Positions 22,565 to 43,987 of a DNA stretch of 54,655 nucleotides are shown in pieces. How positions within the stretch are numbered: the first letter of the stretch is position 1; each line of letters begins with the position of its first letter. Origin of the DNA: Enterobacteria phage mEp021. The position numbers and the translations under genes were made by a program. Below the pieces are notes generated by a model that made no database searches, had not been told where the DNA came from, and saw only the letters and a list, made by a program, of their open reading frames with translations. The stretch is taken from sequence record MH706966; one strand, given 5' to 3'.

Positions 22565-22574
22565 CGGGGTGAAT

Positions 22575-26894: not shown

Positions 26895-27380
26895 ATGGCC
26901 CGCACTAAAAAGGCAAAGGCTGACGATAAAAAGACAGCCGCAAAAAGGGTGGGCCGTCCGCATGGTTATACCGAAGAAAAGGCATTAGAGATCTGTGAGC
27001 TGGTGGCGGACGGTCAAAGTATTAACAAGATTTCGAAGATGCCTGATATGCCTGCGCGTTCAACAATCCTTAAATGGTTCAGAGACGTGCCAGAGTTCTC
27101 GGACATGTACATACGCGCGAAGGAGATCGGTTTTGAGGTATTGGCTGATGAGATCATAGATATAGCAGATGCAGCGGAGAACATTGATAAAGACGAATGC
27201 CGCCGCCATCAACTGATGATTGAAACGCGTAAATGGCTATTGGCAAAACTGCAACCGCGTAAATATGGTGAACGCGTCACGCAGGAAATCGTTGGTAACA
27301 GGGAGGAAGCACCCGTCCAGGTAGAAGTCACGAAAGAAGAGATCGCCCGCATCGTCCAGGAAGTAGAAGACGAGGTGTGA
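26895..27380 (+). CDS. Terminase small subunit
   Basis: 161 aa. N-terminal basic HTH (GRPHGYTEEKALEICELVADGQSINKISK). Overlaps the start of the large subunit. Confidence 0.75.
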   Translation: MARTKKAKADDKKTAAKRVGRPHGYTEEKALEICELVADGQSINKISKMPDMPARSTILKWFRDVPEFSDMYIRAKEIGFEVLADEIIDIADAAENIDKDECRRHQLMIETRKWLLAKLQPRKYGERVTQEIVGNREEAPVQVEVTKEEIARIVQEVEDEV

Positions 27381-28861
27381 TTATGTTGACAATCAAAGAA
27401 CGAGTTATTCAGTCCAAATGTGAAAACGATGGCCTGTTTTTCAATCGCTATTTCTATAAACAAGCGAATGGAACGAAGATGTTAATCTCAGGCCATCATT
27501 TAGCTATCCGTGATGCACTACAACGCGTTATTAATGGTGAGATAACCCGCCTCATCATTAACATTCCCCCAGGGTACGGTAAAACCATGATCGCAACTAT
27601 CAACATGATGGCGCGGTCCCTCGCAATAAATCCCCGCACAAGATTCCTTCACGTTTCCTATTCCAACAACCTGGCGCTACTCAATTCCTCTACTGTAAGA
27701 AACATGATCTGTACGCCTGAATATCAGGCAATGTGGCCCATGAAGATCCGCAACGATGCAAACTCCAAATCGATGTGGTGGACCGAATACGGTGGCGGCG
27801 TGTATGCAACGTCATCACTTGGTCAGGTGACTGGGTTCCGTGCGGGGTACATGGAATCAGGATTTAACGGCGCGTTAATCATCGACGACCCATTAAAACC
27901 CGCTGACGCTTACTCTGACGTGGTGAGAAAGCAGGTAAACACCAACTATAACGACACACTTGCTTCACGTCTGGCAGTGCAAACAACGCCTGTTATCGTC
28001 ATCATGCAGCGCATCCACTACGATGATTTGTCCGGCTACCTGCTACGCGGTGGGAGCGGTGAAAAGTGGTATCACCTTAACCTGCCAGTGAAGATCGACA
28101 ACAGCATCGACTACTGGGATCTGTACCCTGAAAACGAGTTCGCCATCCCTATCGCTCACAACCTGCCAGATGGCTGGCTATGGCCTAAAAAGCACAATGA
28201 CAACCACGAAGCAGGACTGAAGGCACACAGAAGGTCATTCGAGGCCCAGTACATGCAGCGCCCGCGTAAATTCGACGAAGAGGGTGCATTGTGGACTGAA
28301 GCGATGATAACCGCCGCGCACCGGATGCAGATAACGCAGGAGAAAATTCGCACTGTGATAGCCATCGACCCGGCGACAACGTCATCTGATGAATCAGACG
28401 AAACAGGGATCGTGGCGTGTTCCGCTTATGGTGGCGGTAAGAATGCTCAGTATTCTGTTGATGGCGACTACTCAGGCCGCATGTCTCCTAACGACTGGGC
28501 GCAAGCCTCAATGAACGCCTACAACATCCATGAAGCTGACGCGATAGTTATCGAAACAAACCAGGGCGGCGAAATGGCAGAGGCCACGCTACGCAATGCA
28601 GGATTTAAAGGCCGCATTGTTAAGGTGCACGCAAGTAAAGGTAAATTCGCCCGCGCCGAACCAATATCAGCACTATATGCACAGGGCAGAGTAGCCCACA
28701 CTGGCAGCCTGTACACGCTGGAAAATCAAATGATGGAATACGTGCCAGCTACCGCTAAAAAATCCCCTGACCGTATGGACGCTATGGTGTGGGGCATCAC
28801 TGAACTAAGCCAACCACAGGCAATGGGCCTCATGTTACCGAAGCGCCTGCGCGGATTTTAA
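27377..28861 (+). CDS. Terminase large subunit
   Basis: 494 aa. Walker A-like PPGYGKT, Walker B LIIDDP and a C-terminal RNaseH-like nuclease region (IAIDPA...DETGIV). Confidence 0.9.
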   Translation: MIMLTIKERVIQSKCENDGLFFNRYFYKQANGTKMLISGHHLAIRDALQRVINGEITRLIINIPPGYGKTMIATINMMARSLAINPRTRFLHVSYSNNLALLNSSTVRNMICTPEYQAMWPMKIRNDANSKSMWWTEYGGGVYATSSLGQVTGFRAGYMESGFNGALIIDDPLKPADAYSDVVRKQVNTNYNDTLASRLAVQTTPVIVIMQRIHYDDLSGYLLRGGSGEKWYHLNLPVKIDNSIDYWDLYPENEFAIPIAHNLPDGWLWPKKHNDNHEAGLKAHRRSFEAQYMQRPRKFDEEGALWTEAMITAAHRMQITQEKIRTVIAIDPATTSSDESDETGIVACSAYGGGKNAQYSVDGDYSGRMSPNDWAQASMNAYNIHEADAIVIETNQGGEMAEATLRNAGFKGRIVKVHASKGKFARAEPISALYAQGRVAHTGSLYTLENQMMEYVPATAKKSPDRMDAMVWGITELSQPQAMGLMLPKRLRGF

Positions 28862-28918
28862 AATCTGCCTCACAATCACCCGCAAGTTTTTCTATTTTTC
28901 GCGTAGCAACGCGTAAAC

Positions 28919-30310
28919 ATGTATTCAGGAGTAAACATTATATTGCGTTTATTAGATTTGGCGGTTAATGCTGCCTTGTCACAACGTCAGGCGGCCTATG
29001 CCCGCTATGCAGCCGCCAACCCATTCACTATGGGGATAGATGCCAAACGAGATACTGCATGGAGTGAATACGGATTCAAGGAAGAAATCACGTATGACGA
29101 CCTGTACAAACTGTATAGACGCGGTGGTATTGCTCACGGTGCTATTGAGAAAATCATCACGACTTGCTGGCGCACCAGGCCAACGATGATCGAGGGAACA
29201 GAAGACGAGAAAGCGGAAACGGAAACACCCTGGGAAAGAGACATCAAGAAACAGTTTGATAACAGATTTTGGCGCACCATTGCCGAATGTGACCGCCGCC
29301 GCCTCATTGGTCGTTATGCTGGCCTGTTGATTCATGTCAGAGATAGCAAGCCGTGGGATCAGCCAGTGACAAAAGGCGTGGGTATTGCCAAATTTACCCC
29401 GGTATGGGCTGGCGCTCTCACACCGAAGGAGTTCGAAGAAGACCCTAACAGTGAAAACTATGGCCTGCCTACATGGTGGGAATACAAAGAGCGCATAAAC
29501 AGCAAGACCATTGCCAGAAAGATCCACCCTGACCGCATATTTATCTTTGGTGACTATTCTGATGATGCCATCGCCTTCCTTGAACCGTCCTATAACGCCT
29601 TTGTGTCACTTGAGAAAGTGGAAGGCGGTAGCGGTGAATCATTCCTGAAAAACGCTGCCCGCCAGTTAGCTATCTCGTTCGATAAAGAGATTGACTTCCG
29701 CTCCCTTGCTGCAACATACGGATGCGACGTCACAGAGCTACGCGAAAGATTCAATGAGGCTGCGGCTGAAATGAATAAGGGTAACGATGTGATGATGGCA
29801 TTACAGGGGGCGACAGTAAGCCCGCTGGTGACTGCCGTATCTGACCCGTCGGCAACCTATGACGTCAACCTGCAAACCGCCGCCGCTGGTATTGATATTC
29901 CAACCCGCATCCTGGTTGGGAACCAGCAGGGGGAACGCGCATCAACCGAAGACCTCCGCTACTTCAACAGTCGCTGCATGACCCGCAGGGAGGAAATCGG
30001 GGGTGAGCTTGAAGATCTGTTTCGCAAGATGGCAGATCTCCGCCTTATCAGTATGCCAGTCGATGTATCAGTTTTATGGGACGACCTGAACGCCATGACC
30101 AAAGCCGAACTACTGGAAGCGGCATACAAAATGGCACAAATCAATCAGGCTTGTCTGGCTACTGGTGAAGAAATATTTAGCGGTGATGAGATCCGCGAGG
30201 CTGCCGGATACGATGGCCCTGCCAGTGTAGTAGAAACGGAAGAGGAAAACGATGATGAAGGTGAAGAAGATAATCAGGCGAATACCTCCAGCCGCGATAA
30301 TGCCATCTAA
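28919..30310 (+). CDS. Portal protein (start codon uncertain)
   Basis: 463 aa directly after terminase, with an acidic C-terminus. Resembles DUF1073-type portals from memory. Confidence 0.8.
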   Translation: MYSGVNIILRLLDLAVNAALSQRQAAYARYAAANPFTMGIDAKRDTAWSEYGFKEEITYDDLYKLYRRGGIAHGAIEKIITTCWRTRPTMIEGTEDEKAETETPWERDIKKQFDNRFWRTIAECDRRRLIGRYAGLLIHVRDSKPWDQPVTKGVGIAKFTPVWAGALTPKEFEEDPNSENYGLPTWWEYKERINSKTIARKIHPDRIFIFGDYSDDAIAFLEPSYNAFVSLEKVEGGSGESFLKNAARQLAISFDKEIDFRSLAATYGCDVTELRERFNEAAAEMNKGNDVMMALQGATVSPLVTAVSDPSATYDVNLQTAAAGIDIPTRILVGNQQGERASTEDLRYFNSRCMTRREEIGGELEDLFRKMADLRLISMPVDVSVLWDDLNAMTKAELLEAAYKMAQINQACLATGEEIFSGDEIREAAGYDGPASVVETEEENDDEGEEDNQANTSSRDNAI

Positions 30311-31196
30311 CACAGAAGACCCTACCATGACAGGGAAGTTAAGGTCAGGCGCTATCAAGCGTTTTAAAGCCTGCCTTAAGAAAGTGGCGGATCCATATAT
30401 TGCCATACTGGACAGAATGCAATACAGCCTTGCTGTTAATAAGAAATACACCTTTCAGATCTACATTGACGAATTACATGACTTACTGGAAGACGCCAGC
30501 GACATGATTGATGAGATATTCGAGTTAACAGACCCGGAAAACTTCTGGTTCTGGCAAGAATATGTGAAGGTGGCATATCAACGCGGCACTTCTCAGGAAT
30601 ATGCCAACCTCGCTAATCAGTCAGTCACATATTCCAGGGCTTATCCTGAAGTGTCAGCGGTATTAACCAGCCAGACCTATCGCACGCGTCTTGCCCTGGT
30701 CCGTACCCGTGTATTTGAAGAGATGCGCGGGCTGACGGCACAGATCAAGAAGGATATGGCCCGCCGATTAACTGAAGGCATGGCCCGTGGTTTAAACCCG
30801 CTTGAAATAGCGCGTACATTGCAGCAGGAAACGCAATTACCGCTATACAGGTGCAAACGTATTGCCCGTACTGAAATATGCACAGCGTTACGCACAGCGC
30901 GTATGGATGAGGCAGAAGCGGCGACGGAAGAGCTTAACTTGCGCACTATGCAAATGCACATTTCGGCATTGTCACCGACTACCAGGCTATCACACGCACA
31001 GCGACACGGGAAAACATACACCATAGAAGAGCAGCGCGAATGGTGGAGTAGATCCCCTAATTCAATTAACTGCAAATGTAGCACTATTACCGTGATGGTT
31101 GATGAGTCTGGTAATATATTAAACAAACGAATATTAGATCGGGCGCAAGAAAACTATAAGGTTGCGCACGCTAAATATGGCGAAGATTGGGAGTAA
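30300..31196 (+). CDS. Head morphogenesis protein (Mu F / SPP1 gp7 family)
   Basis: Trimmed to the ATG overlapping the portal stop. Position and size are typical. Confidence 0.7.
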   Translation: MPSNTEDPTMTGKLRSGAIKRFKACLKKVADPYIAILDRMQYSLAVNKKYTFQIYIDELHDLLEDASDMIDEIFELTDPENFWFWQEYVKVAYQRGTSQEYANLANQSVTYSRAYPEVSAVLTSQTYRTRLALVRTRVFEEMRGLTAQIKKDMARRLTEGMARGLNPLEIARTLQQETQLPLYRCKRIARTEICTALRTARMDEAEAATEELNLRTMQMHISALSPTTRLSHAQRHGKTYTIEEQREWWSRSPNSINCKCSTITVMVDESGNILNKRILDRAQENYKVAHAKYGEDWE

Positions 31197-31201
31197 TAAC
31201 C

Positions 31202-32473
31202 GTGAGTAAAGAATTAATTCAGGTTAATACCAAATTAACCGCTAATACCATCCGCCGGGAAACGTATAACGGGCGTGAGCATATTGTTGTTCCGTCTTAT
31301 ACGTTACCCTTCAATATCGTTATGAATCGTGAATATTACCCGGAAGCTGAAATTATCGCTAATTATCAATCTCTGGAAGGCACGCTCGCACCGCTGGGTC
31401 ATCCTACGGTTGACGGTGAATTTGTTTCCGCATTTAGCCCGGAAGGTCTGAATATTGGCTTTTGTGGGGCATGGAACAGAAATGTTGAATTACGCGGCAA
31501 TCGTGTTTATGTGGAAAAATGGGTTGATGTTGAAACAGCCAGCCATTCAGAACAGGGCCGAGAATTATTAAGCCGAATTGAAGCGCTGGAAAAAGGCGAA
31601 AGCAAAGATCCGATCTGGTCATCCGTAGCCGTATATCGTCAGCGTATGCCAGCTACCGAAGAAATGAAAGCCCAGGGTGCTGACAGCGTTGTCAAAATTA
31701 TGTCGATTGACCATGATGCTATCTTACTGCATGAACCGCCAGCCGCATCGCCAGAACAGGGCGTTGGCCTGATGGTTAACACTGACCAGGCGAAGCCGTT
31801 AATGGCGGTGGCAATGAAAGAAAACAGCTATCGCACGCTTGAAAGACAATTGGAAGAAGCTGCGCGTGAACTGTTCCACGATGCAGATTATGTCTATGTT
31901 GTGGACTTCACAGATAAAGAAGTGACGATTGCCACTAATACCGAAAGTGCTCAAGTTTGCACATATGAAAAACAGGCTGATAAAATTATCTCTGATAATG
32001 GCGAGCTTGCAACCAATGAGGAAAGCAAATCCTGGTTTACGCAGTTCGCCGAACACCTTTCTAATCTTTTCTCCCTGAATGAAAAAATAAAGGCCAATAA
32101 ATCGGAGGACGATCCCATGCCTTTGACCAAAGAAGAACGCGCCGAACTGGTAAAAGAAATTAACGAAGGTTTAGCCGCTAATATCGCTAATGCAGTAGCA
32201 GAGGCATTAAAACCAGTACAGGCAAGCGTTGAAGAATTACAGACCAACCAGAAAGCGATTAAAGAAGAGATCGCAGCAAACGCAAATAAAGAAGTAGCAG
32301 AAAAACGCGCCGCAGTAGCAAAAGTTCACGGCGAAATTGTTGCTAACGCTTTAAGCGGTGAAGCGTTAGAAGCAATGTTTAAATCCCTGGGTAAAGCAGC
32401 ACCAATGGCAGCAAACTCAGCCGCTGGTGGAAATAAACCTGCCACCCCTGACATTAACAACTATTTCGCATAA
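31202..32473 (+). CDS. Scaffolding / prohead-core protein (DUF2213-like N-terminus, coiled-coil C-terminus)
   Basis: GTG start with RBS GGGAG. Ala/Glu/Lys-rich helical C-terminal half. Lies between MuF and capsid. Confidence 0.6.
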   Translation: MSKELIQVNTKLTANTIRRETYNGREHIVVPSYTLPFNIVMNREYYPEAEIIANYQSLEGTLAPLGHPTVDGEFVSAFSPEGLNIGFCGAWNRNVELRGNRVYVEKWVDVETASHSEQGRELLSRIEALEKGESKDPIWSSVAVYRQRMPATEEMKAQGADSVVKIMSIDHDAILLHEPPAASPEQGVGLMVNTDQAKPLMAVAMKENSYRTLERQLEEAARELFHDADYVYVVDFTDKEVTIATNTESAQVCTYEKQADKIISDNGELATNEESKSWFTQFAEHLSNLFSLNEKIKANKSEDDPMPLTKEERAELVKEINEGLAANIANAVAEALKPVQASVEELQTNQKAIKEEIAANANKEVAEKRAAVAKVHGEIVANALSGEALEAMFKSLGKAAPMAANSAAGGNKPATPDINNYFA

Positions 32474-32484
32474 GAGGTGAAATT

Positions 32485-32886
32485 ATGGCCCGTTTTCGTC
32501 GTGTAAATATTGACGGTAAATCCGTTACTGAAACCGCAGTATCTGCCGCAGCACTTAAGCCTGGCACCCCGGTAAAAATGGCGTCTGGTAAATTCGCTGC
32601 CGCAACTGATACCACAGGACGTATTTATGTTGTTAATCCGGCATACCATGAAGGTTTAGGCATTGAAGATGCGATCCCGGTTGGTCATTCCGTGGTTGCT
32701 GACTACGCAGAAGAAGGACGCGAATTTGCAATTCTGCTTCCTGAAGGTACTTACACCAAAGACGCTGCCATCACCATCGGTGAAGGTGGGTTCAAATTGG
32801 TAGCATCTGATGAACCGGTTTTCGCTTTCTGCCAGGAAACTGTAACCCTTGAAGCGGCTGATTTTGTACGTGTCCGCGTTGCATAA
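32485..32886 (+). CDS. Head accessory/decoration-type structural protein
   Basis: 133 aa with a very strong RBS (TAAGAGGTGAAATTATG). Immediately upstream of the major capsid gene. Confidence 0.5.
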   Translation: MARFRRVNIDGKSVTETAVSAAALKPGTPVKMASGKFAAATDTTGRIYVVNPAYHEGLGIEDAIPVGHSVVADYAEEGREFAILLPEGTYTKDAAITIGEGGFKLVASDEPVFAFCQETVTLEAADFVRVRVA

Positions 32887-32905
32887 TAATAAGAGGTGAA
32901 AAACT

Positions 32906-33958
32906 ATGTTGTTTAATAAACACAACCTTGCTACCAACAGCCGCATTCGTGCTCAGTGGGATCACCTTTGGGCGCAGCGCAACATGTTCAATGATCGTGA
33001 CGGCGCTCTTATTGCCGCAAATATGGCAAACATGACCGCTGACATCCTGGCATGTAATGCCGTTGGCGGCTTCGATCAGGAATTCTGGAAAGCTATCGAT
33101 AACCAGATTATCGAAATGAGCACCGAAGAGACTGGCATCGAAATTGTAAACGACCTGATGGCTGTTCAAACCGTATTACCAATCGGTAAAACCGAGAAAA
33201 TGTACAGCGTATCCGGTGATATTAACGATGAAGTTGTCGTTAGTATTGATGGTCAAGCGCCACACGGCTTTGATCACACCGAATACGGTAGCGATGGCGA
33301 CCCGATCCCGATGTTCACAGCGGGTTACGGTGTCAACTGGCGTCATTCCGAAGGTCTGAAAACTGCGGGTATTGACCTTGCACTGGATAGCCAGCGCCTG
33401 AAACTGCAAAAATTCAACAAAGCCCGCGTTGATTATTACCTTAACGGTAACGCAAAAATCAACGTCAACGGTAAACCGGGCCAGGGTATTAAAAATCACC
33501 GTAATACCCAACAGCTGGTAATGACCTCCGAAGACCTCACCACTGACGGATTTGACGATCTCATCAAATTCTTCACCACTGGTGCATTCGGTGTAATGGC
33601 CCGCAATAACCGTGTTGATCAGTATGACATCATGTGGGTGTCCCCTGAAATTATGGCTAACATGGCGGCGCCGCACATTGCTAACGGTACTGTTGTTGGT
33701 ACTGTACTGAATATCGTTAAACCGTTCATTCCGGTTAAAGAAATCCGTCAGACCTTTGCACTGAAAGGCAACGAGTTCATTGCTTACCAACGCCGTCGCA
33801 ACGTCATTACCCCGCTGGTTGGTATGACCACTGGTGTTGTCCCAATGCCGCGCTTTATGCCTACCGATAACTACAACTTCAAAATCATGTCTGCCGAAGG
33901 CTTACAAATCACCTGCGACATGCTGGGCCGTTCCGGTGTTGTTTACGGTCACAAATAA
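32906..33958 (+). CDS. Major capsid protein
   Basis: 350 aa with a strong RBS, followed by a strong terminator. Position is after scaffold and decoration. Confidence 0.8.
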   Translation: MLFNKHNLATNSRIRAQWDHLWAQRNMFNDRDGALIAANMANMTADILACNAVGGFDQEFWKAIDNQIIEMSTEETGIEIVNDLMAVQTVLPIGKTEKMYSVSGDINDEVVVSIDGQAPHGFDHTEYGSDGDPIPMFTAGYGVNWRHSEGLKTAGIDLALDSQRLKLQKFNKARVDYYLNGNAKINVNGKPGQGIKNHRNTQQLVMTSEDLTTDGFDDLIKFFTTGAFGVMARNNRVDQYDIMWVSPEIMANMAAPHIANGTVVGTVLNIVKPFIPVKEIRQTFALKGNEFIAYQRRRNVITPLVGMTTGVVPMPRFMPTDNYNFKIMSAEGLQITCDMLGRSGVVYGHK

Positions 33959-33978
33959 TTTCCTTATTTCCTGTAACT

Positions 33979-34006
33979 CCCCGGCGCAATGCCGGGGATT
34001 TTTTTT
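33979..34006 (+). terminator. Rho-independent terminator after the capsid gene
   Basis: CCCCGGC-GCAAT-GCCGGGG followed by ATTTTTTTT. Confidence 0.75.
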
Positions 34007-34024
34007 GTATGTGGAGCAAACAAA

Positions 34025-34411
34025 ATGGTCACTACAGAACAGGCGCGGGAATATCTTGAAAGCCAGGGTATTGACCTGCCAGACATTATCTTATCCTTGC
34101 TGGTGGAGCAGGCAAACAGCGTTAACGAATGCCTTGATGCCAACTATCCGGCCTCCACTGCAACATTAATTCAACTTTATCTGATTGGCCTGTCAGGACT
34201 AACCCAGGCTAACAAATACGTTTCCTCGCAGACTGGTCCGAACGGTGCAAGCCAGTCATACCGCTATGTCGATTTTAATAAAAAATGGAAGGCGGCCTAT
34301 TCGTTGCTTTATTCCCTGGACAAACATCACTGTACAGCAGAACTAATTCCACCAGATCCAGAAAACACCGCGCACGCCGGGCTGTGGATAGGTAAAAGCG
34401 GGAGGATGTAA
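34025..34411 (+). CDS. Head-tail connector / head completion protein
   Basis: Trimmed to MVTTEQAREYL. First gene after the capsid terminator. Confidence 0.55.
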   Translation: MVTTEQAREYLESQGIDLPDIILSLLVEQANSVNECLDANYPASTATLIQLYLIGLSGLTQANKYVSSQTGPNGASQSYRYVDFNKKWKAAYSLLYSLDKHHCTAELIPPDPENTAHAGLWIGKSGRM

Positions 34412-34413
34412 CA

Positions 34414-34599
34414 ATGTGGAATGACCTGACATTACCGAATCCGTTATTACCGAAACCGTTTACCCGCGTATGGGTGCAGACTGATACCGGGAGGCAGGTG
34501 GCGGCATATCTTAATGACGCTGGCGAATGGGTGATTCTATGCCCGCGCGTGGCGAAAACCCATCCGAAAATCATCAAATGGAGTTGCGGATATGAGTAA
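34414..34599 (+). CDS. Hypothetical structural-region protein (61 aa)
   Basis: Coupled ORF. Confidence 0.45.
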   Translation: MWNDLTLPNPLLPKPFTRVWVQTDTGRQVAAYLNDAGEWVILCPRVAKTHPKIIKWSCGYE

Positions 34600-34960
34600 G
34601 ATCGCGAGATTCAGCTATAAGGCATTAGCCACCATTTACCCCGTGACGCGTGACGACTGGACAAACTCCGACGTATACGGAACGCCATACCTGATTGATT
34701 GTGCATGGGAACGCACTGACGGAACCGCAACAGACGCAAACGGGAATGAGGTTAGCAACACAATAACCGTATATACCGAACTGCTTCACAAGATGCAGCC
34801 AGTACAGCGCCCGGAAAAAGGGTGGATGCTTGCCACTGGTGACACTACTGCTATTGCTGACCCGCTGGCGGCTGGGGCCAACTTTATAACCGGGATCGTT
34901 GAATGGGACATGAGCATGTTTAACGACACGCCGGACTATAAGATCGTCACAGGAGGTTAA
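34592..34960 (+). CDS. Head-tail adaptor
   Basis: 122 aa. Called on position and size. Confidence 0.5.
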   Translation: MSKIARFSYKALATIYPVTRDDWTNSDVYGTPYLIDCAWERTDGTATDANGNEVSNTITVYTELLHKMQPVQRPEKGWMLATGDTTAIADPLAAGANFITGIVEWDMSMFNDTPDYKIVTGG

Positions 34961-34962
34961 TT

Positions 34963-35403
34963 ATGCCTATTAGGGGCGTCAAACGTGTCAGGGAGCGATT
35001 AAAGCAGGAGCTAAAGGAAATCACAGATAAGAAAACTTATGAGGTGTTATGGCGAGTAGGGATGCTGGCTGGTGGCTTCGCAGCGAACATGACCCCAGTT
35101 GACACGGGTTTTTTAATTAACAGTCAATTTCAGTATATAGGTAACACGGCGGAGGGTATGCAATTACGACTGGGGTATACGGCCCGTTACGCTGAATGGG
35201 TGCATGACATGCCGGGTAAATTAAAAGGCCAGCCGCGTAAACATTTCGGCAAAACCAGAGAAGGCGTAGAATTTGGCGGCGGTACTGGTAAGGGTAATTA
35301 TTGGGACCCAAACGCGGAGCCGGAATTTTTGCGTAATGCATTTGAAGATCCAAACAACGCTGACGATATTTATAAAACGATTATAGAAGGTTACAAAACA
35401 TGA
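34963..35403 (+). CDS. HK97 gp10-family head-tail joining protein
   Basis: 146 aa. ...MTPVDTGFLINS... is typical of the gp10 family. Confidence 0.6.
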   Translation: MPIRGVKRVRERLKQELKEITDKKTYEVLWRVGMLAGGFAANMTPVDTGFLINSQFQYIGNTAEGMQLRLGYTARYAEWVHDMPGKLKGQPRKHFGKTREGVEFGGGTGKGNYWDPNAEPEFLRNAFEDPNNADDIYKTIIEGYKT

Positions 35404-35786
35404 AACGCAGCGAGGTTTACGACGAAATAAGGGATTGGATTAAATCCCACGGGTACGACGAAGGTTATATTTTGCAGGCCCGTTTCTGGAATGAGCGATC
35501 CAATTCGAATAACAGCAGATATATTGTCATACAGCAAAACGGCGGAGCGGCGGGAGAAGAGGCGATAACCCGCGACTATTTCCGCATCCTGGTTATTTCG
35601 GCGCGTAATGACGCAAATATCAGTGAAGTGGAAGATCTCGCCGATGCAATACGGCAAAGTATGATAACAGAGTATAAAACTGATAAAATTACATACATGA
35701 AGCCAGTAGGCGCTATTCCTGCAATGCAGACAAGAGAAGGGCGCTTTATTTTTACCGTAGCTTTTCAAACCATCATATCAAGATAA
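35400..35786 (+). CDS. Tail completion / tail terminator protein
   Basis: 128 aa immediately upstream of the major tail gene. Confidence 0.55.
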   Translation: MKRSEVYDEIRDWIKSHGYDEGYILQARFWNERSNSNNSRYIVIQQNGGAAGEEAITRDYFRILVISARNDANISEVEDLADAIRQSMITEYKTDKITYMKPVGAIPAMQTREGRFIFTVAFQTIISR

Positions 35787-35799
35787 GAGGTAACTAAAC

Positions 35800-36276
35800 A
35801 TGTCTCAGACTTGTGATAAAGGTTCGTTCTTAGGCCGCGACGTTGCCGTATTTTACGCTATCGCTTGCCCTAATGCGAAACCTGAAGAAAGCGCTTATAA
35901 AGCGTTAGGCATGATGCGTGGCAAATCTCTTTCCGTAGAATGGGAAACCGCAGACGCCACCGCTGATAAATCAGCAGACTACACCAAAGAATCACTGGTA
36001 ACTTACAAATCTGTTGCCTTCTCAGGTGACGGCGTATCACGCACCGAAGAGATCTACAATCAGAAAGCACTTAAACGCCACGTTATTAACCCTGGCGAAA
36101 CAACTGGTGCGCAGCCTTACGTCTGGTTGAAACTCGTTTCCCCGCTCGACGTAACAGAAGGCCCGTTTCTTTGCACCTCCTTTAAAGAAGAGGATCCGCA
36201 CGACGATGTGTCCACTTGGTCCATTGAATGCGAAAGCGCTGGCAAAGTCACGGTAGGTGACGTTCCGTCAGTGTAA
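35800..36276 (+). CDS. Major tail protein
   Basis: 158 aa with the strong RBS TAAGAGGT, followed by a terminator. Confidence 0.7.
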   Translation: MSQTCDKGSFLGRDVAVFYAIACPNAKPEESAYKALGMMRGKSLSVEWETADATADKSADYTKESLVTYKSVAFSGDGVSRTEEIYNQKALKRHVINPGETTGAQPYVWLKLVSPLDVTEGPFLCTSFKEEDPHDDVSTWSIECESAGKVTVGDVPSV

Positions 36277-36293
36277 CAATAAATATTAACATC

Positions 36294-36319
36294 GGGGCCA
36301 TTTGGCCCCTTTATTTTTT
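36294..36319 (+). terminator. Rho-independent terminator after the major tail gene
   Basis: GGGGCC-ATTT-GGCCCC followed by TTTATTTTTT. Confidence 0.7.
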
Positions 36320-36331
36320 ATGGTGACAGTT

Positions 36332-37012
36332 ATGATTCATGTTCGAACCGGACAATTTGCGGTCGTTGTTGATGGCAGACGTTACGAGTTCAACCCATGC
36401 TTTGCTGCAATGGCTAAGATCGGCAGTGACAGGGAACTGGTTGAATATTTCGCAACTGTGCACGGTGGCAAATACCCACAGCGTTTGCCAACGGATCCAG
36501 ACCTCCGCAATCGCATTATGGCGCGTTGTTATGGTGAGTTAGTGCAAACGTCCATCCACGTCCTGAAATGTTGCTCAGAATGCGAAATAGGCCAGTTATT
36601 GGGCGAATGCAGCTTTACTCCTTCGGGTAAGTTGAGACTGAAACCTGGGTTGATGCCCACCAGCGACGTTATCACACTGGCGCAACACTGCATGTATCAC
36701 GGTTTGATTGGTGACGGACCAGATGAGGACACTGGCGAGGAGCAGGAAGGAGACTATAAACAGACGTTTGACATCCTTGAATACGTTTACTCCGCTGTTG
36801 CTCACCTGGGATTGTCTGAATCTGAAGCATGGGGCATGACAATGACCGGATACAGGGCCGCTGTACGCGCTAAAACGCCACCAGACGAAAGAAACGAGAA
36901 ACGTAAGCCAAACGTTCATATAAATAAACGTGATTATGATGAGCAAATGGAGGCAGCTAAAAGGGTGCTGGAATTGATGAAAAAACGCGAGCAAGAAAAA
37001 GCCCGGGGTTAG
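36332..37012 (+). CDS. Tail assembly chaperone (start 36320 or 36332)
   Basis: Lies between the major tail and tape measure genes. Acidic middle and basic tail. Confidence 0.5.
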   Translation: MIHVRTGQFAVVVDGRRYEFNPCFAAMAKIGSDRELVEYFATVHGGKYPQRLPTDPDLRNRIMARCYGELVQTSIHVLKCCSECEIGQLLGECSFTPSGKLRLKPGLMPTSDVITLAQHCMYHGLIGDGPDEDTGEEQEGDYKQTFDILEYVYSAVAHLGLSESEAWGMTMTGYRAAVRAKTPPDERNEKRKPNVHINKRDYDEQMEAAKRVLELMKKREQEKARG

Positions 37013-37052
37013 CCGGGCGTTATATGTCGATGATGCTTTTTGATGGTGCCAA

Positions 37053-37469
37053 TTATCTGAACCTTGCTATTTCAATTCTGCCGTTGCCCAAGTCAATGAT
37101 GGCATGATTTTTTATACCCGCGCCGCCTTCGTTAAATATTCTTTCAGCAAATGCGGCTTTATCAGCGTTACACTCATTGGCTATTCTGTTTCTTATTTCA
37201 TCGTTGCCTTCGAATACGACGCCTACAGCAGCCTCCTTCACAAGTCCCCAGTTAAACCATCTTGCGTAAACCGGTTTACCTTCGAAATGATCGTCAATTG
37301 CTTTATAAAAAACCTTGATAGCTGCGGGTTCCTTCTTGAAGATTTTGTGGTATTCGGCAACATTATTAGCTACATCATCGCAGTTTATATTCATCACATC
37401 GTTTGCGTTGGCGTTGAATGCTAAACCTACCATTACCGCCATCACTGCCGCTTTGATTAGCCGTTTCAT
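37053..37469 (-). CDS. Secreted (Sec signal peptide) accessory protein, 138 aa
   Basis: MKRLIKAAVMAVMVGLAFNANA signal with an AxA cleavage site. It is on the opposite strand inside the tail operon. Confidence 0.65.
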   Translation of the reverse strand: MKRLIKAAVMAVMVGLAFNANANDVMNINCDDVANNVAEYHKIFKKEPAAIKVFYKAIDDHFEGKPVYARWFNWGLVKEAAVGVVFEGNDEIRNRIANECNADKAAFAERIFNEGGAGIKNHAIIDLGNGRIEIARFR

Positions 37470-37482
37470 ACCCCACCCCCGC

Positions 37483-37569
37483 TTATTTTTTGTTTTTAAG
37501 TGCCTTCAGCATTTCTTCGATAAAGTCGGCATAGTGCTCATGCTCGTTGGGTCGGTAGTAGTTTTTCAT
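37483..37569 (-). CDS. Possible 28-aa hydrophilic peptide MKNYYRPNEHEHYADFIEEMLKALKNKK
   Basis: Not in the track. RBS AGAGGATAAGAAAATG. Lies 13 nt upstream of the secreted-protein gene. Confidence 0.35.
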   Translation of the reverse strand: MKNYYRPNEHEHYADFIEEMLKALKNKK

Positions 37570-37725
37570 TTTCTTATCCTCTTTGCTTCCTCCGGTTAAT
37601 CCGACCTTCTAAATCCCTTTACTCTATCCCTTTCCTTTAGCCTCTTTATACAAAATGTATTCGTTGAAGTGAAGCCATTTTGTATAAAATAGAGATCAGT
37701 ATCACACTTTTTACGAGGTTAAATC

Positions 37726-40071
37726 ATGTCCACCAGTTTAGGTACAATTTATTACGAAGTTGATGCAAAAACTGGTCAACTTCTAGTCGCTCAGAGACAG
37801 GCGGATCAGGCTTTTGACAGTATCGAGCGTGGCGCAAAACGCGCTGACCGCCAGGTTAACACGCTTAAAACTTCAATCAAAGCACTATCCAGGGTTATAC
37901 ATCTGCTACTTGCTGCGGAGGCTGTGCGCCAGTTTATTGACATGGCGGAGCAAGCAAAAATGCTTCGTGTCAAAATTAAAATGCTCACAGGTGACGCAGA
38001 GGCCGCAGGACGTGTTTTTGACGGCCTGAAAAAAATATCAAAGGAAACCGGGCAAAGCCTTAAAGACACTGGCGAATTGTGGCAAGGCCTGGCTATTTCA
38101 CTAAAGAATACTTCCGCTACGGAAGGCCAATTGCTCAACCTGGTTGGCACTATTCAGAAGATGGGGGCGTTAGGAGGCGCGTCAGCGGAACAGATGTCTA
38201 ATTCTATGCGCCAGTTCCGCCAGTCTATAGACGGCGGCGTGCTGCGTGCTGAAGAGTTTAACAGCCTGTTAGAGAACACGCCGACCATCGTACAGACAAT
38301 GGCCCGCCATATGGGGTTGTCAATGGGCCAGTTCCGCGCCGAAATGCTGGACGGCAAGATCACGGCTGAAAGGATGGTTAACGCGATTCAGGCAGCTACA
38401 CAGGAAACAAACGAGAAGTTTGCACAGTTGCCGCGCACGTCCGGCAAGGCTATCAATGAGCTTAAAGTTGAGGTGATGGGGCTTGTCGAACAACTTGACG
38501 ATCTTTTCGGCATATCAGATGGCGTTGTATCAGCTATCGACTTAATAACTGGCGGCGTTGAGGGATTAGGTAAAGGCGCTAAATTCGCCGCAACCTGTTT
38601 TAATACACTCAAAACGGCTGGCAGTGAGTTCATAGACATGTTTGACGACGTGGCTGTTAAGGCTGGCGAGGTGGCGGAAGAAATCATTAGAATGGTAACG
38701 CCAATCAAGGCGCTAATGGATGGCTACAAATGGATGAAGGAGATTGTAGGAAAGCAAACAGAAGAATATAACACCAATTATGAGAAGAAATACGGTAAAA
38801 GACTTGGTAAGGGAATGCAATTTTGGGATGATTGGCAGGCCGTACTTAACCAAACAAAAGAAAACAAGGGAACCGACACCGCTGACGACGGCAAGATCAC
38901 CGGATTCGAGCCACCAGTAGATAAGCCAGGAAAACCGAAAAAAGGAAAAAAAGACAAGAAATCTGAAGCTGATCGGCTTGGTGATGAAGGTATAAAAGTG
39001 TCCGACCAGTACAACAAGGACGCCGCCGCTATGCGCAAAGCATTAGAGAACGGCAAGGCCATTGATGCTGCATTCGCCCAGGGCAAAATCACCCTCCTTG
39101 AGTACAAGGCCGCGCAAAAGGGGATAGGCAAGGAACTGAAGGACGAATTGGCACAAATCCCGGTGGAAGAATTGCAAGATAAATGGGCGCACATAGTAAG
39201 CCCAATGGATCAGCTTAAGGGCGAAATTGACCCAATCAAACAGGCGCAGAATGAGTGGGCTGTCAGAAAACAAATGCTATTAGACCTGGGAGCTACAGAA
39301 GCGCAACAGAGACAGGCGCAGTTAGAATATGAGCAACAGATCAGGGATCTGAAGTGGGAGCAATGGCAGGCGCAAAGCGACACAAACAGCCTGATTGGTG
39401 CTTGTGTTAGCGGCCTCAAGGGTGGCATGGGTAATGCGCTTACTGGCCTGTTAAACGGTACTCAATCATTAAGCGAGGTTTTTGCCAACCTGGGAAGCAG
39501 CATACTTAACACCGTAGGCAATAAACTTTCGGAAATAGCCGCTAACTGGATAGCAGATCAATTGATGATGGAAACGCAAAGCAAGGCTACACAGGCAAGT
39601 ACAGCGGCTGGCGCTGTGGCAGCGCAGGGCGAGATTGCTGCGGCAGCGGCCCCGGCAGCGGCTGCGACGGCGGCATCAACTGGCGGTAGCTGGGCGGCGG
39701 CTGGTGCTGCGGCGCTTTCTGCTATCATGTCGCTGGCAACGTCAATTTTTGGCGGCGGTCGTTATAATGGTGGTTCTGTGAATGGTGGCAGTCTGTATCG
39801 CGTAGGGGAACACGGAATACCGGAGCTATTCCAGACGAGCAACGGGCGTCAGTATATGATTCCTGGGGAAAATGGCAGGGTTATTCCTGGCCGCGATCTT
39901 TTCAGTGGTGGCAGCATCAGTATGCCTGTTAACATTACCGTTCAGACCACAAACGGGTTTAGCGAAGAGGACAGTCGCAGATTGCAAGACGCCATGAAAC
40001 GCGTTGCAATGGGAGTAATTAAAGAGCAAAGTTCAAGGCCCGGAGGTCTTATCCAACCACGAAGAAAATAA
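37726..40071 (+). CDS. Tape measure protein
   Basis: 781 aa, largely helical, with a Gly/Ala-rich hydrophobic segment near the C-terminus. Confidence 0.9.
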   Translation: MSTSLGTIYYEVDAKTGQLLVAQRQADQAFDSIERGAKRADRQVNTLKTSIKALSRVIHLLLAAEAVRQFIDMAEQAKMLRVKIKMLTGDAEAAGRVFDGLKKISKETGQSLKDTGELWQGLAISLKNTSATEGQLLNLVGTIQKMGALGGASAEQMSNSMRQFRQSIDGGVLRAEEFNSLLENTPTIVQTMARHMGLSMGQFRAEMLDGKITAERMVNAIQAATQETNEKFAQLPRTSGKAINELKVEVMGLVEQLDDLFGISDGVVSAIDLITGGVEGLGKGAKFAATCFNTLKTAGSEFIDMFDDVAVKAGEVAEEIIRMVTPIKALMDGYKWMKEIVGKQTEEYNTNYEKKYGKRLGKGMQFWDDWQAVLNQTKENKGTDTADDGKITGFEPPVDKPGKPKKGKKDKKSEADRLGDEGIKVSDQYNKDAAAMRKALENGKAIDAAFAQGKITLLEYKAAQKGIGKELKDELAQIPVEELQDKWAHIVSPMDQLKGEIDPIKQAQNEWAVRKQMLLDLGATEAQQRQAQLEYEQQIRDLKWEQWQAQSDTNSLIGACVSGLKGGMGNALTGLLNGTQSLSEVFANLGSSILNTVGNKLSEIAANWIADQLMMETQSKATQASTAAGAVAAQGEIAAAAAPAAAATAASTGGSWAAAGAAALSAIMSLATSIFGGGRYNGGSVNGGSLYRVGEHGIPELFQTSNGRQYMIPGENGRVIPGRDLFSGGSISMPVNITVQTTNGFSEEDSRRLQDAMKRVAMGVIKEQSSRPGGLIQPRRK

Positions 40072-40089
40072 TTTATTGATTTAATCTTA

Positions 40090-40123
40090 CGCCCGCAAGA
40101 TAATGACGTATCCTTGCGGGCTT
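40090..40123. terminator. Bidirectional hairpin terminator between the tape measure gene (+) and the minus-strand island
   Basis: GCCCGCAAG-N13-CTTGCGGGC followed by TTTGCTT. Confidence 0.65.
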
Positions 40124-40126
40124 TGC

Positions 40127-41461
40127 TTACGCGGCTTTTATAATTTCTTTATACTTATCTTCCACCATGTTAAAAACCTCTGGTCTGTAGTAGAAAAATT
40201 CGCAACTACCATCAAATTTTACTGGGAAGTTAATTTTGTAATTATTAAGGGTTTTGTGTATCGCGCCTTCTAGTTCATAGATATTTTGTGTCGGACCTTC
40301 TAATGTTTTTACGATATGCAAATCAGGAATCGTTACACCCGCTTTATGTGCGCTACTTAGTATTCTATTTCTTCGTTCGTTTTCCTTAACACTTACCCCT
40401 ACTTTCATTAGCGTTGGTACTTCCAGATCGTCAACCATGATATAAAGTTTGCCGCGTTCGTAGGATAAAAAACCCTTTTTAGCACATTTAGAACAGCCGC
40501 TACCTTCCTTAAGTTTTTGCGGCGTGGTTCGCCACTTATAACCACACACTTTACATAAACACGATACTTTGTTTTTATTCCCTGTTATTTTACCTACCAC
40601 TTTGATATTAGGGTTGATGTTGGCAATGGCTTTTACTTGCTCATCATGTGATATTCTTCGTGCTTGCGATCCTTTTCGTTTCGCACACTTCGGGCAACCA
40701 GTACCTTTTTTAAGGCTGGCTGGAGTAGTTAACCACTCATGACTGCAAGACTTACAGCGGCATAACGTTCTCGTAGTATTGTTAATAATTTTTTCTAATA
40801 CCTCAACGCTAGGACTGGTTTTCGCAATAACTGCAATTTGTTCTTCATGTGATAGTTTGGTGTGTCCGCTACATTTCGGGCAGCCAGTACCATGCTTGAT
40901 GTTGTTGGGAGTTGCTGGCCATTCATGATTGCAAATCTTACATTTGCATAATACTTTTTTTAAACTCGCAGATTAAAAGGGGTTTTATTCAATATTGCTG
41001 TTAACCTTCGCAATAGCTGCAACTTGTTCTTCATGCGTTAATCTTCTATCTGCGCATTTTGGGCAACCTTGCCCGATTTTAAGTGTTTCAGGTCTAGCCA
41101 ACCATTCATGATCACAAACTTTGCAATGGCATAATACCTTTGTTTTATTATTAATAATTACCCCTAACACCTTAATATCAGGATTAACTTTAGCAATAAT
41201 TGCAACCTGTTCTTCGTGTGGTAATGCCCGTTTTTGTGCTCTTTTTAACGCCGCACATTTAGGGCAACCAACACCGCGCTTAAGATCAGCAGGTCTACCA
41301 AACCATTCGTGATTACAAGTTTTGCAGCAGCATGATACTTTTTCCATATTCCCGGTAATTACCCCTATCACCTCGATATTGGGGTTAACTTTTGCAATAG
41401 CGGCAACTTGTTCTTCGTGTGTTAATTTTTTTGTCATAATACCGCTCCTACAATCTTCCAT
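40127..41461 (-). pseudogene. Second Zn-ribbon-array/T5orf172 paralogue (five modules), interrupted by two in-frame TAA codons
   Basis: One 445-codon frame. The track ORFs 40985-41461 and 40127-40600 are its two ends. Stops are at 40985-40987 and 40973-40975, and there is no start codon for the 120 codons in between. Confidence 0.65.
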
Positions 41462-41547
41462 TCCGTCCTACATAACTCCTGCCGAACATTACCAACCAGA
41501 TGCTCCAGATCTCCCGCCATGTGTATTTCTCATTCTTCATACCCGCC

Positions 41548-41802
41548 TCACTTATGAGCGCCTTTTACGCCACATAACTTGTTATAAAAATGGTGCTCAA
41601 CGATTAACCAAACCCTCAGATCTTCACTGAACAGCCGCCAATCAGGATTAATGTCAAACTTCCAGCCATAACCATCGCGTAACTTTTTGGGGTTGGCCTC
41701 TTTCTTCAGGAAAGCATTTAATAAGGCTTTTCCCTTTTTGATGATCCGGTCCTGTGCGTTTTTCTGTGCTTTCAGGTTTTTACCAATCGCCACCAATTTC
41801 AT
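41548..41802 (-). CDS. Basic 84-aa protein (weak RelE/ParE-like look)
   Basis: Trimmed to the ATG with RBS GGGGTGG. ...KKLRDGYGWKFDINPDWRLFSEDLRVWLIVEHH. Confidence 0.5.
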   Translation of the reverse strand: MKLVAIGKNLKAQKNAQDRIIKKGKALLNAFLKKEANPKKLRDGYGWKFDINPDWRLFSEDLRVWLIVEHHFYNKLCGVKGAHK

Positions 41803-41820
41803 AATCCACCCCGCAATCAA

Positions 41821-41976
41821 TTAGTTGACCACTTTCAGGAAGAAATCACAGTATTCATCTTCTTTTGCATTCATCATGAACTGACCGTATTTGAATGCGT
41901 CATCAAAGCCTTTTACAATCGCCACTTCCACCTGTTCGAATGCGTTGTTCAGCATTACCACTACATAGCGTTTCAT
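41821..41976 (-). CDS. Acidic 51-aa protein
   Basis: Trimmed to the ATG with the strong RBS AAGGAGGGG. Its stop is 18 nt upstream of the next gene's start. Confidence 0.45.
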   Translation of the reverse strand: MKRYVVVMLNNAFEQVEVAIVKGFDDAFKYGQFMMNAKEDEYCDFFLKVVN

Positions 41977-42042
41977 GATGCCCCTCCTTTGTTGGTACTG
42001 CTTTCTCTTCTTGCCTCCTATATACATCTTGTTACGTCATGT

Positions 42043-42071
42043 GTGAAGCCATTTTGTAAACTGGGTATAAT
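42043..42071 (+). promoter_or_regulatory. Candidate restart promoter for gpM (TATAAT at 42066-42071) overlapping GCCATTTTGTAAA
   Basis: Consensus -10 hexamer but a poor -35 (GTGAAG). The motif copy lies in the spacer. Confidence 0.3.
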
Positions 42072-42146
42072 TCTTGTGACGAAGTTCTCATTTTTCGCGT
42101 AGAAGCGCGTAAAGATGTATGCAATATGTAACTTATAGGGGGAATC

Positions 42147-42500
42147 ATGCCTGAAGTTTTCAGATGGACGCCGCAAAGAAGCTACAGCGTGACCAGGGAA
42201 CCAAATGTGTCGGTCGTTAAACTTGGTGATGGTTATGAACAGCGCCAGGCTAAAGGGATTAACACGTTGCTTGATAGCTACACCCTGGTTTTTAAAGGCA
42301 GTAGCGCAGGATGCGGTGATAGTGGGAACGTGGCGATCCAGGCAGAAGCATTCTTGAGGGCGCGCGGCGCTGTCGAGGCTTTTTACTGGTCGCCGTCTAT
42401 GGATGGTGTGCAAAGGCTTTTTGTTTGCCGTAGCTGGAGTATGACAAAGGACGGGCCTGTATACACGCTAAACGCAACATTTGAGCAAGTTGTCAGTTAG
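42147..42500 (+). CDS. Minor tail protein M
   Basis: 117 aa. FRWTPQRSYSVTREPNVSVVKLGDGYEQRQAKGIN is typical of lambda gpM. Confidence 0.8.
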   Translation: MPEVFRWTPQRSYSVTREPNVSVVKLGDGYEQRQAKGINTLLDSYTLVFKGSSAGCGDSGNVAIQAEAFLRARGAVEAFYWSPSMDGVQRLFVCRSWSMTKDGPVYTLNATFEQVVS

Positions 42501-42697: not shown

Positions 42698-42703
42698 TAA
42701 CAA

Positions 42704-42724
42704 CCCCGCTTCGCGCGGGGTTTT
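42704..42724. terminator. Bidirectional hairpin terminator
   Basis: CCCCGC-TTCGC-GCGGGG followed by TTTTCTT. Closes both the plus-strand and the converging minus-strand units. Confidence 0.65.
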
Positions 42725-42876: not shown

Positions 42877-43125
42877 CTATAAGTTATCACGCAGGTAATT
42901 AACGCCCTTATCAGTGACGAATGAATGGTTTACCTGGTTTTCATCCGTCATGATGATGAATAACTTTTCCTGTAGGTATTTCGCTTTCGGGTACAGTGTT
43001 AAACAGACCTGGTACAGTATCCCGCGCTCAATCAGCAAATCAATAAATTCGTGCTCATGATAACCGATAAGGCGGGCGGCCTGTTTCAACGTGTACACAT
43101 AGTCACCGTGATTACGCCGTGCCAT
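42877..43125 (-). CDS. 82-aa protein with an HTH-like segment
   Basis: Trimmed to MARRNHGDYVYTLKQAARLIGYHEHEFIDLLIERGIL (MerR/AlpA-like helix-turn-helix look). Confidence 0.5.
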   Translation of the reverse strand: MARRNHGDYVYTLKQAARLIGYHEHEFIDLLIERGILYQVCLTLYPKAKYLQEKLFIIMTDENQVNHSFVTDKGVNYLRDNL

Positions 43126-43135
43126 GATTTTATTC

Positions 43136-43369
43136 TCACATATCAAAAAATAGCATGTCAGGTATAAAAGTATCGCCGCAAGAATTTCCATATCCTTTTA
43201 CCGTACTACCATCAATATCAATCACTGTGAGCGGCACAAAATTTAAACAGTCATCGACAGTGAAACGGCTGCCAGAAGGTGTAATGAATAATGGGTATCT
43301 ATTTTTTATATTAAAATCATCATTTTTGTTAGATGTAACAACGAGTTTGATAACACCTATCATCTTCAT
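43136..43369 (-). CDS. Hypothetical protein (77 aa), AT-rich gene
   Basis: ORF in the minus-strand cassette. Confidence 0.5.
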   Translation of the reverse strand: MKMIGVIKLVVTSNKNDDFNIKNRYPLFITPSGSRFTVDDCLNFVPLTVIDIDGSTVKGYGNSCGDTFIPDMLFFDM

Positions 43370-43384
43370 ATATCGGCCTACACT

Positions 43385-43738
43385 TTATTTGCCATTAAAA
43401 CAGCCCAGGTTATCTATGCAGAAGTCTTTTGCCGCTTTTTCGTATTCGCGTTTTGCTTCCGGATCGTCAGCTGGAAAACCTTTTGCGTGTATTTCTCCAG
43501 GGCAAGATTGATCCATAGAATCAGCAAATTCAACATTGACGTTAAAGTTAATATCTTTCGGGTTCATCTCTTCCACCTTATCCGGTACTTGGACCGGAGT
43601 AATATCAAAATCACGATAGTTAAACCCACAGCGAAGTAATTCACGACCTTCATCACGCGCCGCAGCATATGTGTCAAATAGGCCCATGCGTTCCCATCCG
43701 CATTTATTAGTAAACACGTCTAAACTGTATTTTTGCAT
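43385..43738 (-). CDS. Hypothetical protein (117 aa), acidic, several Cys
   Basis: ORF in the minus-strand cassette. Confidence 0.55.
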   Translation of the reverse strand: MQKYSLDVFTNKCGWERMGLFDTYAAARDEGRELLRCGFNYRDFDITPVQVPDKVEEMNPKDINFNVNVEFADSMDQSCPGEIHAKGFPADDPEAKREYEKAAKDFCIDNLGCFNGK

Positions 43739-43750
43739 TTTGTTAACCTC

Positions 43751-43906: not shown

Positions 43907-43987
43907 CGCACACCTCCGCGCCATTTTGTTAACCCTGCTTCCTTTTGAGTACAATATACATATTGTAAAAAGCGCTATCAACCGTTT

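Follow-up and report, generated by a model that had tools for sequence, protein, structure and literature searches.

Enterobacteria phage mEp021 (sequence record MH706966; the whole stretch of 54,655 nucleotides (nt) analysed here is called the window) carries two copies of a 31-nt block, both on the plus strand and each upstream of a structural gene. Copy 1 (ATTTTTCGCGTAGCAACGCGTAAACATGTAT, 28894–28924) lies in the 79-nt spacer between terL (27377–28861) and the portal gene (28943–30310 on the plus strand when read from TTG 28943; Pfam Phage_portal_3), the open reading frame (ORF) of which is also open from ATG 28919. Copy 2 (ATTTTTCGCGTAGAAGCGCGTAAAGATGTAT, 42090–42120) lies in the leader of a gene for a gpM-like minor tail protein (42147–42500, plus strand). 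Judged by its sequence, the window is a temperate coliphage of the mEpimmI (mEp021-like) group, since around 4 kb surrounding terL and portal are 92–94% identical to Escherichia phages mEp044, mEp013, mEp010, mEp515 and mEp554, and 87% identical to MagusPhagus. Phages of the mEpimmI group are temperate, non-lambdoid and Nus-dependent, and they encode an N-like protein (Gp17) and a Q-like protein; of their three nut sites, one is far downstream (PMC11893012). An earlier note on this DNA placed both copies at the 5′ end of late gene blocks, which describes gpM well, as it follows a reversed accessory block, and portal only loosely, 79 nt after terL.

The two blocks read as that note had given them and are identical at 28 of 31 positions. 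The 31-nt pattern, with up to three mismatches and on both strands, matches the window at these two sites and has no match in 100 shuffled sequences. Profiles built from relatives and run with nhmmer return the same two copies only (E 1e-15 to 1e-26; next best E>0.3), as does a scan of the window for the architecture of a T-run, GC stem, loop, stem and AAA, and neither k-mer sharing nor antisense complementarity adds further copies beyond chance in the window. The profile alignment spans about 90 nt (28851–28941 against 42048–42153), with weak similarity outside the core. The AAGTT motif, previously counted as part of the similarity, varies freely in relatives (GAATT, AAATT, AATGA, AATAT) and is thus outside the element.

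Conservation was assessed in loci of this phage group from IMG/VR, 31 at gpM and 50 at portal; the distinct sequences number 26 for copy 2 and 44 for copy 1, and the consensus is drawn from 34 distinct block variants. Around 45 related genomes have the block exactly twice each, always upstream of portal and gpM and with the stem kept, so that the outcome named earlier as a refutation, loss of the block from relatives or variation that breaks the stem, is not what is seen. Each copy is nearly invariant in its set of distinct relatives. The conserved core is T(4–6)-CGCG-TAG-N(2–3)-CGCG-TAAA, and the full consensus is R-T(4–6)-CGCG-TAG-NNN-CGCG-TAAA-N-R-T-R-TA-Y, in which the base preceding the T-run is always a purine (A; G once). 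In 22 genomes copy 1 has CAA as its variable triplet and copy 2 has AAG, the other triplets seen being AAT, AGG, AAA, CTA, CGA and a 2-nt AT. Only two stem changes occur, both C to T (L026/L031 and L030/L236); both fall at position 1 of the CGCGTAR unit and would give G·U in RNA. The pattern is that of strong purifying selection on the block at the sequence level, and the two blocks are very probably a real regulatory signal.

The block is restricted to this lineage. An exact-pattern scan of IMG/VR finds it in 87 stretches, two per genome, all on contigs of about 54 kb of this phage group and nothing else. Among complete Escherichia coli genomes the copy 2 region is present in 16 and the copy 1 region in 34, where annotation is limited to the flanking genes. 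Matches to the pattern in GTDB species genomes are no more frequent than chance, apart from a few contigs of Campylobacter metagenome-assembled genomes that were not inspected and may be mis-binned phage DNA. A protein scan of genome contigs gave no matches, and a metagenome scan covering copy-2-type loops gave mostly random AT-rich matches and no new stem variant. Homologues of gpM at about 70% identity in other phages have no block, nor do homologues of portal at about 60% identity in Enterobacter, Citrobacter and Klebsiella prophages; one metagenome contig with a 63%-identical portal has a homologous 79-nt spacer, including CTCATAAT and GTAAAC, with no CGCG repeat. That the block is missing from these more distant head and tail gene homologues indicates that it arose within the mEpimmI lineage, and the best explanation is a single cis-element, peculiar to that lineage, of which the two blocks are paralogous copies.

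The surroundings of the two copies differ in what has been conserved. Upstream of copy 2, a TATAAT hexamer (42066–42071, plus strand), the putative −10 of a gpM promoter, is invariant in all relatives and keeps a constant spacing of 18 nt to the block. Its best −35 is GTGAAG, a 3/6 match, and the promoter is not called by a consensus scan; transcription from it would start at about 42078 and place the block at about +12 to +42. Two copies of a palindromic motif dispersed through the window (TATACA-WWW-TGTATA, described further below) are found nearby on the plus strand: GCCATTTTGTAAAC at 42048–42061, which corresponds to half of the motif, and the degenerate TATGCAATATGTAAC at 42118–42132, which reads TATACAAAATGTAAC in most relatives and overlaps the last 3 nt of the block. 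The ATG within copy 2 opens a mini-ORF of seven codons (42115–42138, plus strand), as had been noted, although its TAG ends 8 nt, and not 12, before the gpM ATG at 42147 (11 nt counted after the last sense codon). Most relatives have ATA at the position of this ATG and others have GTA or GTG, so the mini-ORF is not conserved. An ATG-TAA start-stop pair at 42125–42130, 17 nt upstream of the gpM start codon, recurs in nearly all relatives (ATG-TGA in one); it is probably incidental, because it has no Shine-Dalgarno (SD) sequence and overlaps the dispersed motif.

At copy 1, the counterpart of TATAAT is CACAAT (28871–28876, plus strand), whose last T is unconserved and which reads CACAAC in many relatives; by its sequence it is a vestigial or non-functional −10. 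The spacer upstream of copy 1 also contains small indels among relatives. In some of them an extra 75 nt or so, which holds the perfect palindrome CTTCGAAAAATTTTCGAAG, separates the terL stop from the AAAATCTG that precedes copy 1 (e.g., L092 1341–1410; also L093, L094, L101–L103, L105, L106, L112, L115–L117, L124 and L131). Copy 1 thus has the look of a duplicated promoter and leader, of which selection now maintains only the block and the portal ribosome-binding region. As there is no conserved promoter at copy 1, the function of the block does not need one immediately upstream.

The portal start itself calls for a correction. The earlier note had described ATG 28919, within copy 1, as the only ATG available to portal, and it is indeed the only one before about codon 37 and has no SD sequence; however, an in-frame TTG at 28943 follows the portal SD AGGAG (28927–28931, plus strand), which is invariant in relatives and lies 8 nt before their ATG. 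In all relatives portal begins AGGAG-N8-ATG CCA TC., with the ATG at the position of 28940 in the window, 21 nt downstream of the block ATG, and the homologous proteins start MPSNL[DE]LAVNAA and are 456 amino acids long. In the window, ATA TTG CGT TTA (28940–28951) replaces the ATG CCA TCN AAT of relatives, with 10 of the 12 bases differing, and this patch is found in no IMG/VR contig. Translation from TTG 28943 would give MRLLDLAVNAA, an N-terminus of normal length, and TTG 28943 is the likely start in this phage, the alternative being the SD-less ATG 28919. The supplement of PMC11893012 contains no portal N-terminal peptides.

The core of copy 1, CGCG-TAGCAA-CGCG (28900–28913, plus strand), can be drawn as a stem-loop or, together with 28914–28916, as a direct repeat CGCGTAG/CGCGTAA. 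The previously described CGCG/CGCG stem with a 6-nt loop is present in both copies (28900–28903 with 28910–28913, and 42096–42099 with 42106–42109), with 5 bp and a 4-nt loop as an alternative, but the hairpins are weak. Folding energies are −6.1 kcal/mol for copy 1 (z −0.8 relative to shuffled sequences) and −9.2 kcal/mol for copy 2 (z −2.2). The latter value is that of a predicted extended hairpin (42090–42116, plus strand), in which pairing of the U-run with UAAAGAU lengthens the CGCG stem and one U is bulged out. Pairing among relatives was examined with a model of 11 pairs, made up of the CGCG stem, an inner U:R pair and the U-run with UAAAGAU, again with one bulged U. In this model 95.7% of cells pair, whereas sliding the partner columns gives 25–79%. 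One-sided changes mostly retain pairing, and purine changes in the 3′ flank still pair with the U-run.

The reading favoured here, at a probability of about 0.4, is that the element acts in the sense-strand leader RNA and in a sequence-specific manner to set expression of portal and gpM. Both copies are found on the coding strand, within the untranslated leader of a structural gene, and in the transcript the block would fold as a small GC hairpin that is lengthened by U:A pairs and has one U bulged out. Directly 5′ of the hairpin is an R-UUUUU stretch that resembles an RNase E site. The hairpin would be recognised sequence-specifically, or would serve as a barrier at the 5′ end or as a processing point, such that the amount or the translation of the portal and gpM messages is set independently of upstream sequence. 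Copy 1 is independent of a promoter and the distance to the start codon is variable. The hairpin lies 13 nt from the SD sequence in copy 1 and 26 nt in copy 2, which argues against masking of the SD and favours a role in stability, processing or binding. The lack of a conserved −10 at copy 1 means that the block need not be promoter-proximal, and this speaks against an operator or pause site tied to a promoter. Sense orientation, promoter independence, the SD distances, the substitutions that keep pairing and the invariant purine plus U-run, which looks like an RNase E site ahead of a protective hairpin, are together the features favouring a role at the level of the transcript. We infer that RNA rather than DNA is the active form, and the identity of any binding factor and the direction of effect are likewise inferred. 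A more ambitious variant, in which the block is the RNA target of a new sequence-specific regulator, or a factor-independent RNA acting on RNA polymerase or Rho, is unlikely; if true, it would be unique to mEpimmI and would couple portal, the head-assembly initiator, with the tail-tip protein gpM, as a late-gene counterpart of the N/nut system.

Several observations weigh against this transcript-level role. No compensatory double change was found in any pair (zero among the relatives), in columns so nearly invariant that the shuffle control is uninformative; thus the compensatory stem changes that the earlier note had proposed to look for did not appear. Copy 1 folds no more stably than shuffled sequence. 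The block is fixed in sequence, whereas a constraint on structure only should let stems drift. The first three bases of the loop, TAG, mirror the TAA after the second CGCG, a symmetry better accounted for by a DNA direct repeat CGCGTAR-N3-CGCGTAR than by a hairpin. The putative promoter ahead of copy 2 is read from the sequence only. In Rfam, nothing in the window reaches the gathering score, and the regions 28800–29000 and 41950–42200 have no match at E<=10. A direct repeat of CGCG automatically gives a hairpin, because CGCG is self-complementary; the repeat has a 10-bp period, and the same bases can also be read as an imperfect 8-6-8 palindrome, TTTTCGCG-N6-CGCGTAAA. Either reading would suit a DNA-binding protein, and the conservation of CGCGTAG-NNN-CGCGTAA fits a DNA direct repeat or palindrome just as well as an RNA hairpin. 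The hairpin is accordingly compatible with the data and not demonstrated. Of the shared RNA element first proposed, a shared sense-strand cis-element is well supported; its RNA nature is not proven.

The main rival is a DNA operator, where a phage or host protein on the tandem direct repeat or the 8-6-8 palindrome would be a roadblock to transcription or a repressor, positioned at +18 to +40 of the putative gpM promoter and between terL and portal. This is possible, though we regard it as somewhat doubtful. It would account for the pattern of seven conserved, three variable and seven conserved bases, for the position of both stem substitutions at the first base of the repeat unit and for the constant spacing of TATAAT and block at copy 2; frozen sequence without covariation is typical of protein-DNA sites, and this phage does have dispersed DNA motifs near promoters. 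However, copy 1 has no conserved promoter to regulate, one relative (L027/L028) has a 9-bp instead of a 10-bp period, no extra copies or half-sites are found at other promoters, and the asymmetry of TTTT and TAAA is itself conserved in both copies. One known site, the CpxR-type GTAAA-N5-GTAAA, matches copy 2 at 9/10 and copy 1 at 8/10 positions, but it is not enriched in the window (9 found, 5.5 expected) and leaves the conserved CGC unexplained.

The other alternatives are less probable still. In a late nut-like antitermination site, the block would be a boxB-like RNA bound by Gp17 or another factor, and the polymerase would be modified to pass the terminator-like hairpins that lie downstream of both copies, at 33978, 36294 and 37001 (after the capsid and tail-tube genes) and at 42702 (after gpM). 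The group already has an N-like protein and three nut sites, one far downstream (PMC11893012). The probable nut sites of the window, located by sequence, with coordinates that are not from PMC11893012, are nutR2 (20171–20203), nutL (11002–10970, minus strand) and nutR1 (12224–12261); they have a boxA, GCTCTTTAAAAATCCGG or CGCTCATTA, and short CGC/GCG hairpins with loops UGAAAU, UGCGAA and UGGAAGU (20192–20203, 10981–10970 on the minus strand, and 12247–12261). The block is similar in its short stem, in having GCGTAGAA in common between nutR2 and copy 2, and in the nutL/nutR-like arrangement, with one copy close to a promoter and the other behind genes; the located boxB loops also begin with U and are purine-rich. 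Nevertheless, no boxA (YGCTCTTWA-like, with at most one mismatch) is present in 28860–28900 or 42060–42095, the loops UAGCAA and UAGAAG are not GNRA-like and vary freely in their 3′ half, with only one variant giving GGAA, and nhmmer gives no significant similarity to the nut regions of this phage (E 2–50). In addition, the two other points at which the tail operon restarts, upstream of the tape-measure gene and gpL, have no block, and a Q-like antiterminator is already present, all of which makes this reading improbable. It is less probable again that the block is a device for starting translation, its ATG opening portal at copy 1 and a regulatory upstream mini-ORF at copy 2. In all relatives portal can be read in frame and without a stop from the block ATG, which is GTG in one of them (L119), and an upstream start could compensate for the loss of the canonical ATG in the window. 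Against this stand the variable codon at copy 2, the lack of an SD sequence before either ATG, and the homologous portals, which begin five to six residues before LAVNAA, as expected for the canonical ATG and TTG 28943 and not for the block ATG. Of equally slight probability is a neutral duplication or recombination scar, also raised in the earlier note, with similarity kept by occasional gene conversion. The weak similarity over about 90 nt, which includes the decayed −10, is what duplication of a promoter and leader would leave, and the 63%-identical portal relative shows the homologous spacer without the CGCG repeat. Moreover, two genomes (IMG/VR 2541047727_000007 and 3300045988_076772) have the same triplet in both copies (AAG/AAG and CAA/CAA) with copy-specific flanks kept, which suggests rare short-patch gene conversion between sites 13 kb apart. 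Yet conversion within a genome cannot keep some 45 genomes identical when adjacent non-coding and synonymous positions vary in 15–35% or more of sequences around an invariant or nearly invariant core, and in most genomes each copy retains its own diagnostic bases (TAAAC as opposed to TAAAG, CAA as opposed to AAG). The probability that remains falls to something not considered here.

A number of known signal types were tried and rejected. An intrinsic terminator on either strand does not fit, with the T-run before the hairpin and AAA after it, and neither site appears in a terminator scan. A qut site would need more than is found, as copy 1 has no conserved promoter, no hexamer of the block has A2 and T6, and the candidate late promoter after the Q-like gene is without a block. 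The sigma-E reading of GAAGTT fails because the motif is not conserved. A CII-type site (a 4-N6-4 repeat at −35) has a suitably spaced −10-like hexamer in copy 2 only (CAATAT/CAAAAT), and none on the minus strand. With ops/RfaH sites the block has GTAG alone in common, a preQ1-like aptamer has no Rfam match, and a pac site is unlikely given the second copy 13 kb away in the same orientation.

The wider gene map places the element in its phage. To the left of terL are genes for a CI-like repressor (11167–11814), an N-like protein (12318–12608), a Q-like protein (21612–22334; Pfam Antiterm) and an Sf6-type terS (26895–27380). In the region 22348–22620, a candidate late promoter, CTGGCA-16-GATAAT, stands directly after the stop of the Q-like gene, with terminator-like hairpins downstream at 22451–22471 and 22593–22612, the latter within a called ORF; the layout resembles lambda pR′-tR′. 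The tail operon is split by three accessory blocks on the minus strand: 37053–37469, before the tape-measure gene (37726–40071); 40127–41977, between the tape-measure gene and gpM; and 42877–43925, between gpM and gpL. The middle block encodes a T5orf172/GIY-YIG-like protein, a DUF4379 zinc finger and a ParE-like toxin with its antitoxin, the antitoxin gene lying upstream of the toxin gene. A terminator-like hairpin follows gpM (42702–42722), and the gpL–J genes run from 44035.

The dispersed motif mentioned above is a separate feature of this DNA. It is strongly over-represented: TATACA-WWW-TGTATA, with up to three mismatches, has 18 matches in the window against 6.9 expected, the half-site CCATTTTGTA has 21 against 6.2, and GCCATTTTGTWAAC has 14 against 1.65, counts that were reached by no shuffle. 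Sites include 52944–52958, 20140–20154, 37647–37661, 43955–43969, 11925–11939, 12607–12621, 16539–16553, 42048–42061, 6062–6075 and 11081–11094, among others, and they cluster at promoter-like regions: to either side of the repressor gene, ahead of nutR2, and at the restart points in front of the tape-measure gene, gpM, gpL and an ORF at 53029. From its distribution the motif looks like the operator set of a phage regulator of many promoters, a stoperator-like regulon, which could explain the silence of internal sigma-70-like promoters in lysogens. The gpL leader (43920–44035) has a conserved promoter-like unit, TTGTTA-18-TACAAT, followed at about 44005–44022 by a conserved CGTGA-N4–6-(G)ATCACA, the arms of which are fixed in relatives and the centre varies freely; it may represent a CRP-like site (TGTGA-N6-TCACA, 9/10) or, alternatively, a hairpin in the leader. 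Upstream of the 53029 ORF is a homologous unit (52942–52990).

These findings have significance beyond one phage, as mEpimmI phages are as common as lambdoid phages among isolates from the human gut and the control of their late genes has hardly been studied. The element offers a concrete entry point for studying what sets the amounts of low-copy assembly proteins. If a specific factor binds it, the two would form a new regulator-site pair, and if not, it would be an ordinary leader hairpin; in either case it is small enough for its function to be settled with a handful of mutants.

The block is not described in PMC11893012 on this phage group, and it matched no known family, but it can be compared with several established systems. 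Like the lambda-type nut sites, where N binds boxA and boxB RNA, and including the three of mEp021 itself, it can be read as a short GC-stem hairpin with a purine-rich loop in sense RNA, present as two copies per genome, one close to a promoter and the other behind genes; nut sites are in use in the same phage group (PMC11893012). Unlike them, it has no boxA, its loop is not GNRA-like and is half variable, and it lies in the late, structural region. A second parallel is with leader hairpins that stabilise messages. Hairpins that act as 5′ stabilisers or barriers, and intercistronic RNase E sites, are known from the ompA 5′ untranslated region, papBA and T4 mRNAs (cf. review PMC3014915). The block shares with these a leader hairpin after an AU-rich single-stranded stretch (R-UUUUU), a distance to the SD that is not fixed and a position at the 5′ boundary of a cistron block, whereas stabiliser hairpins are usually constrained in structure rather than sequence and the sequence of the block is frozen. 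In Cluster K mycobacteriophages, the SAS and ESAS elements lie upstream of many genes and overlap the ribosome-binding region. They too are short conserved motifs, specific to a lineage, just upstream of gene starts, some SAS have inverted repeats, and their function is unknown; the mEp021 block differs in having two copies only, 13–26 nt before the SD. Mycobacteriophage L5 has about 30 stoperators per genome, which match its immunity operator. These resemble the block as short conserved DNA sites within transcription units, downstream of a promoter, but the block has two copies and bears no resemblance to the phage's own dispersed TATACA-WWW-TGTATA motif. Set beside these systems, the block is a lineage-specific, two-copy cis-element of an ordinary general kind, that is, a short regulatory site in a leader.

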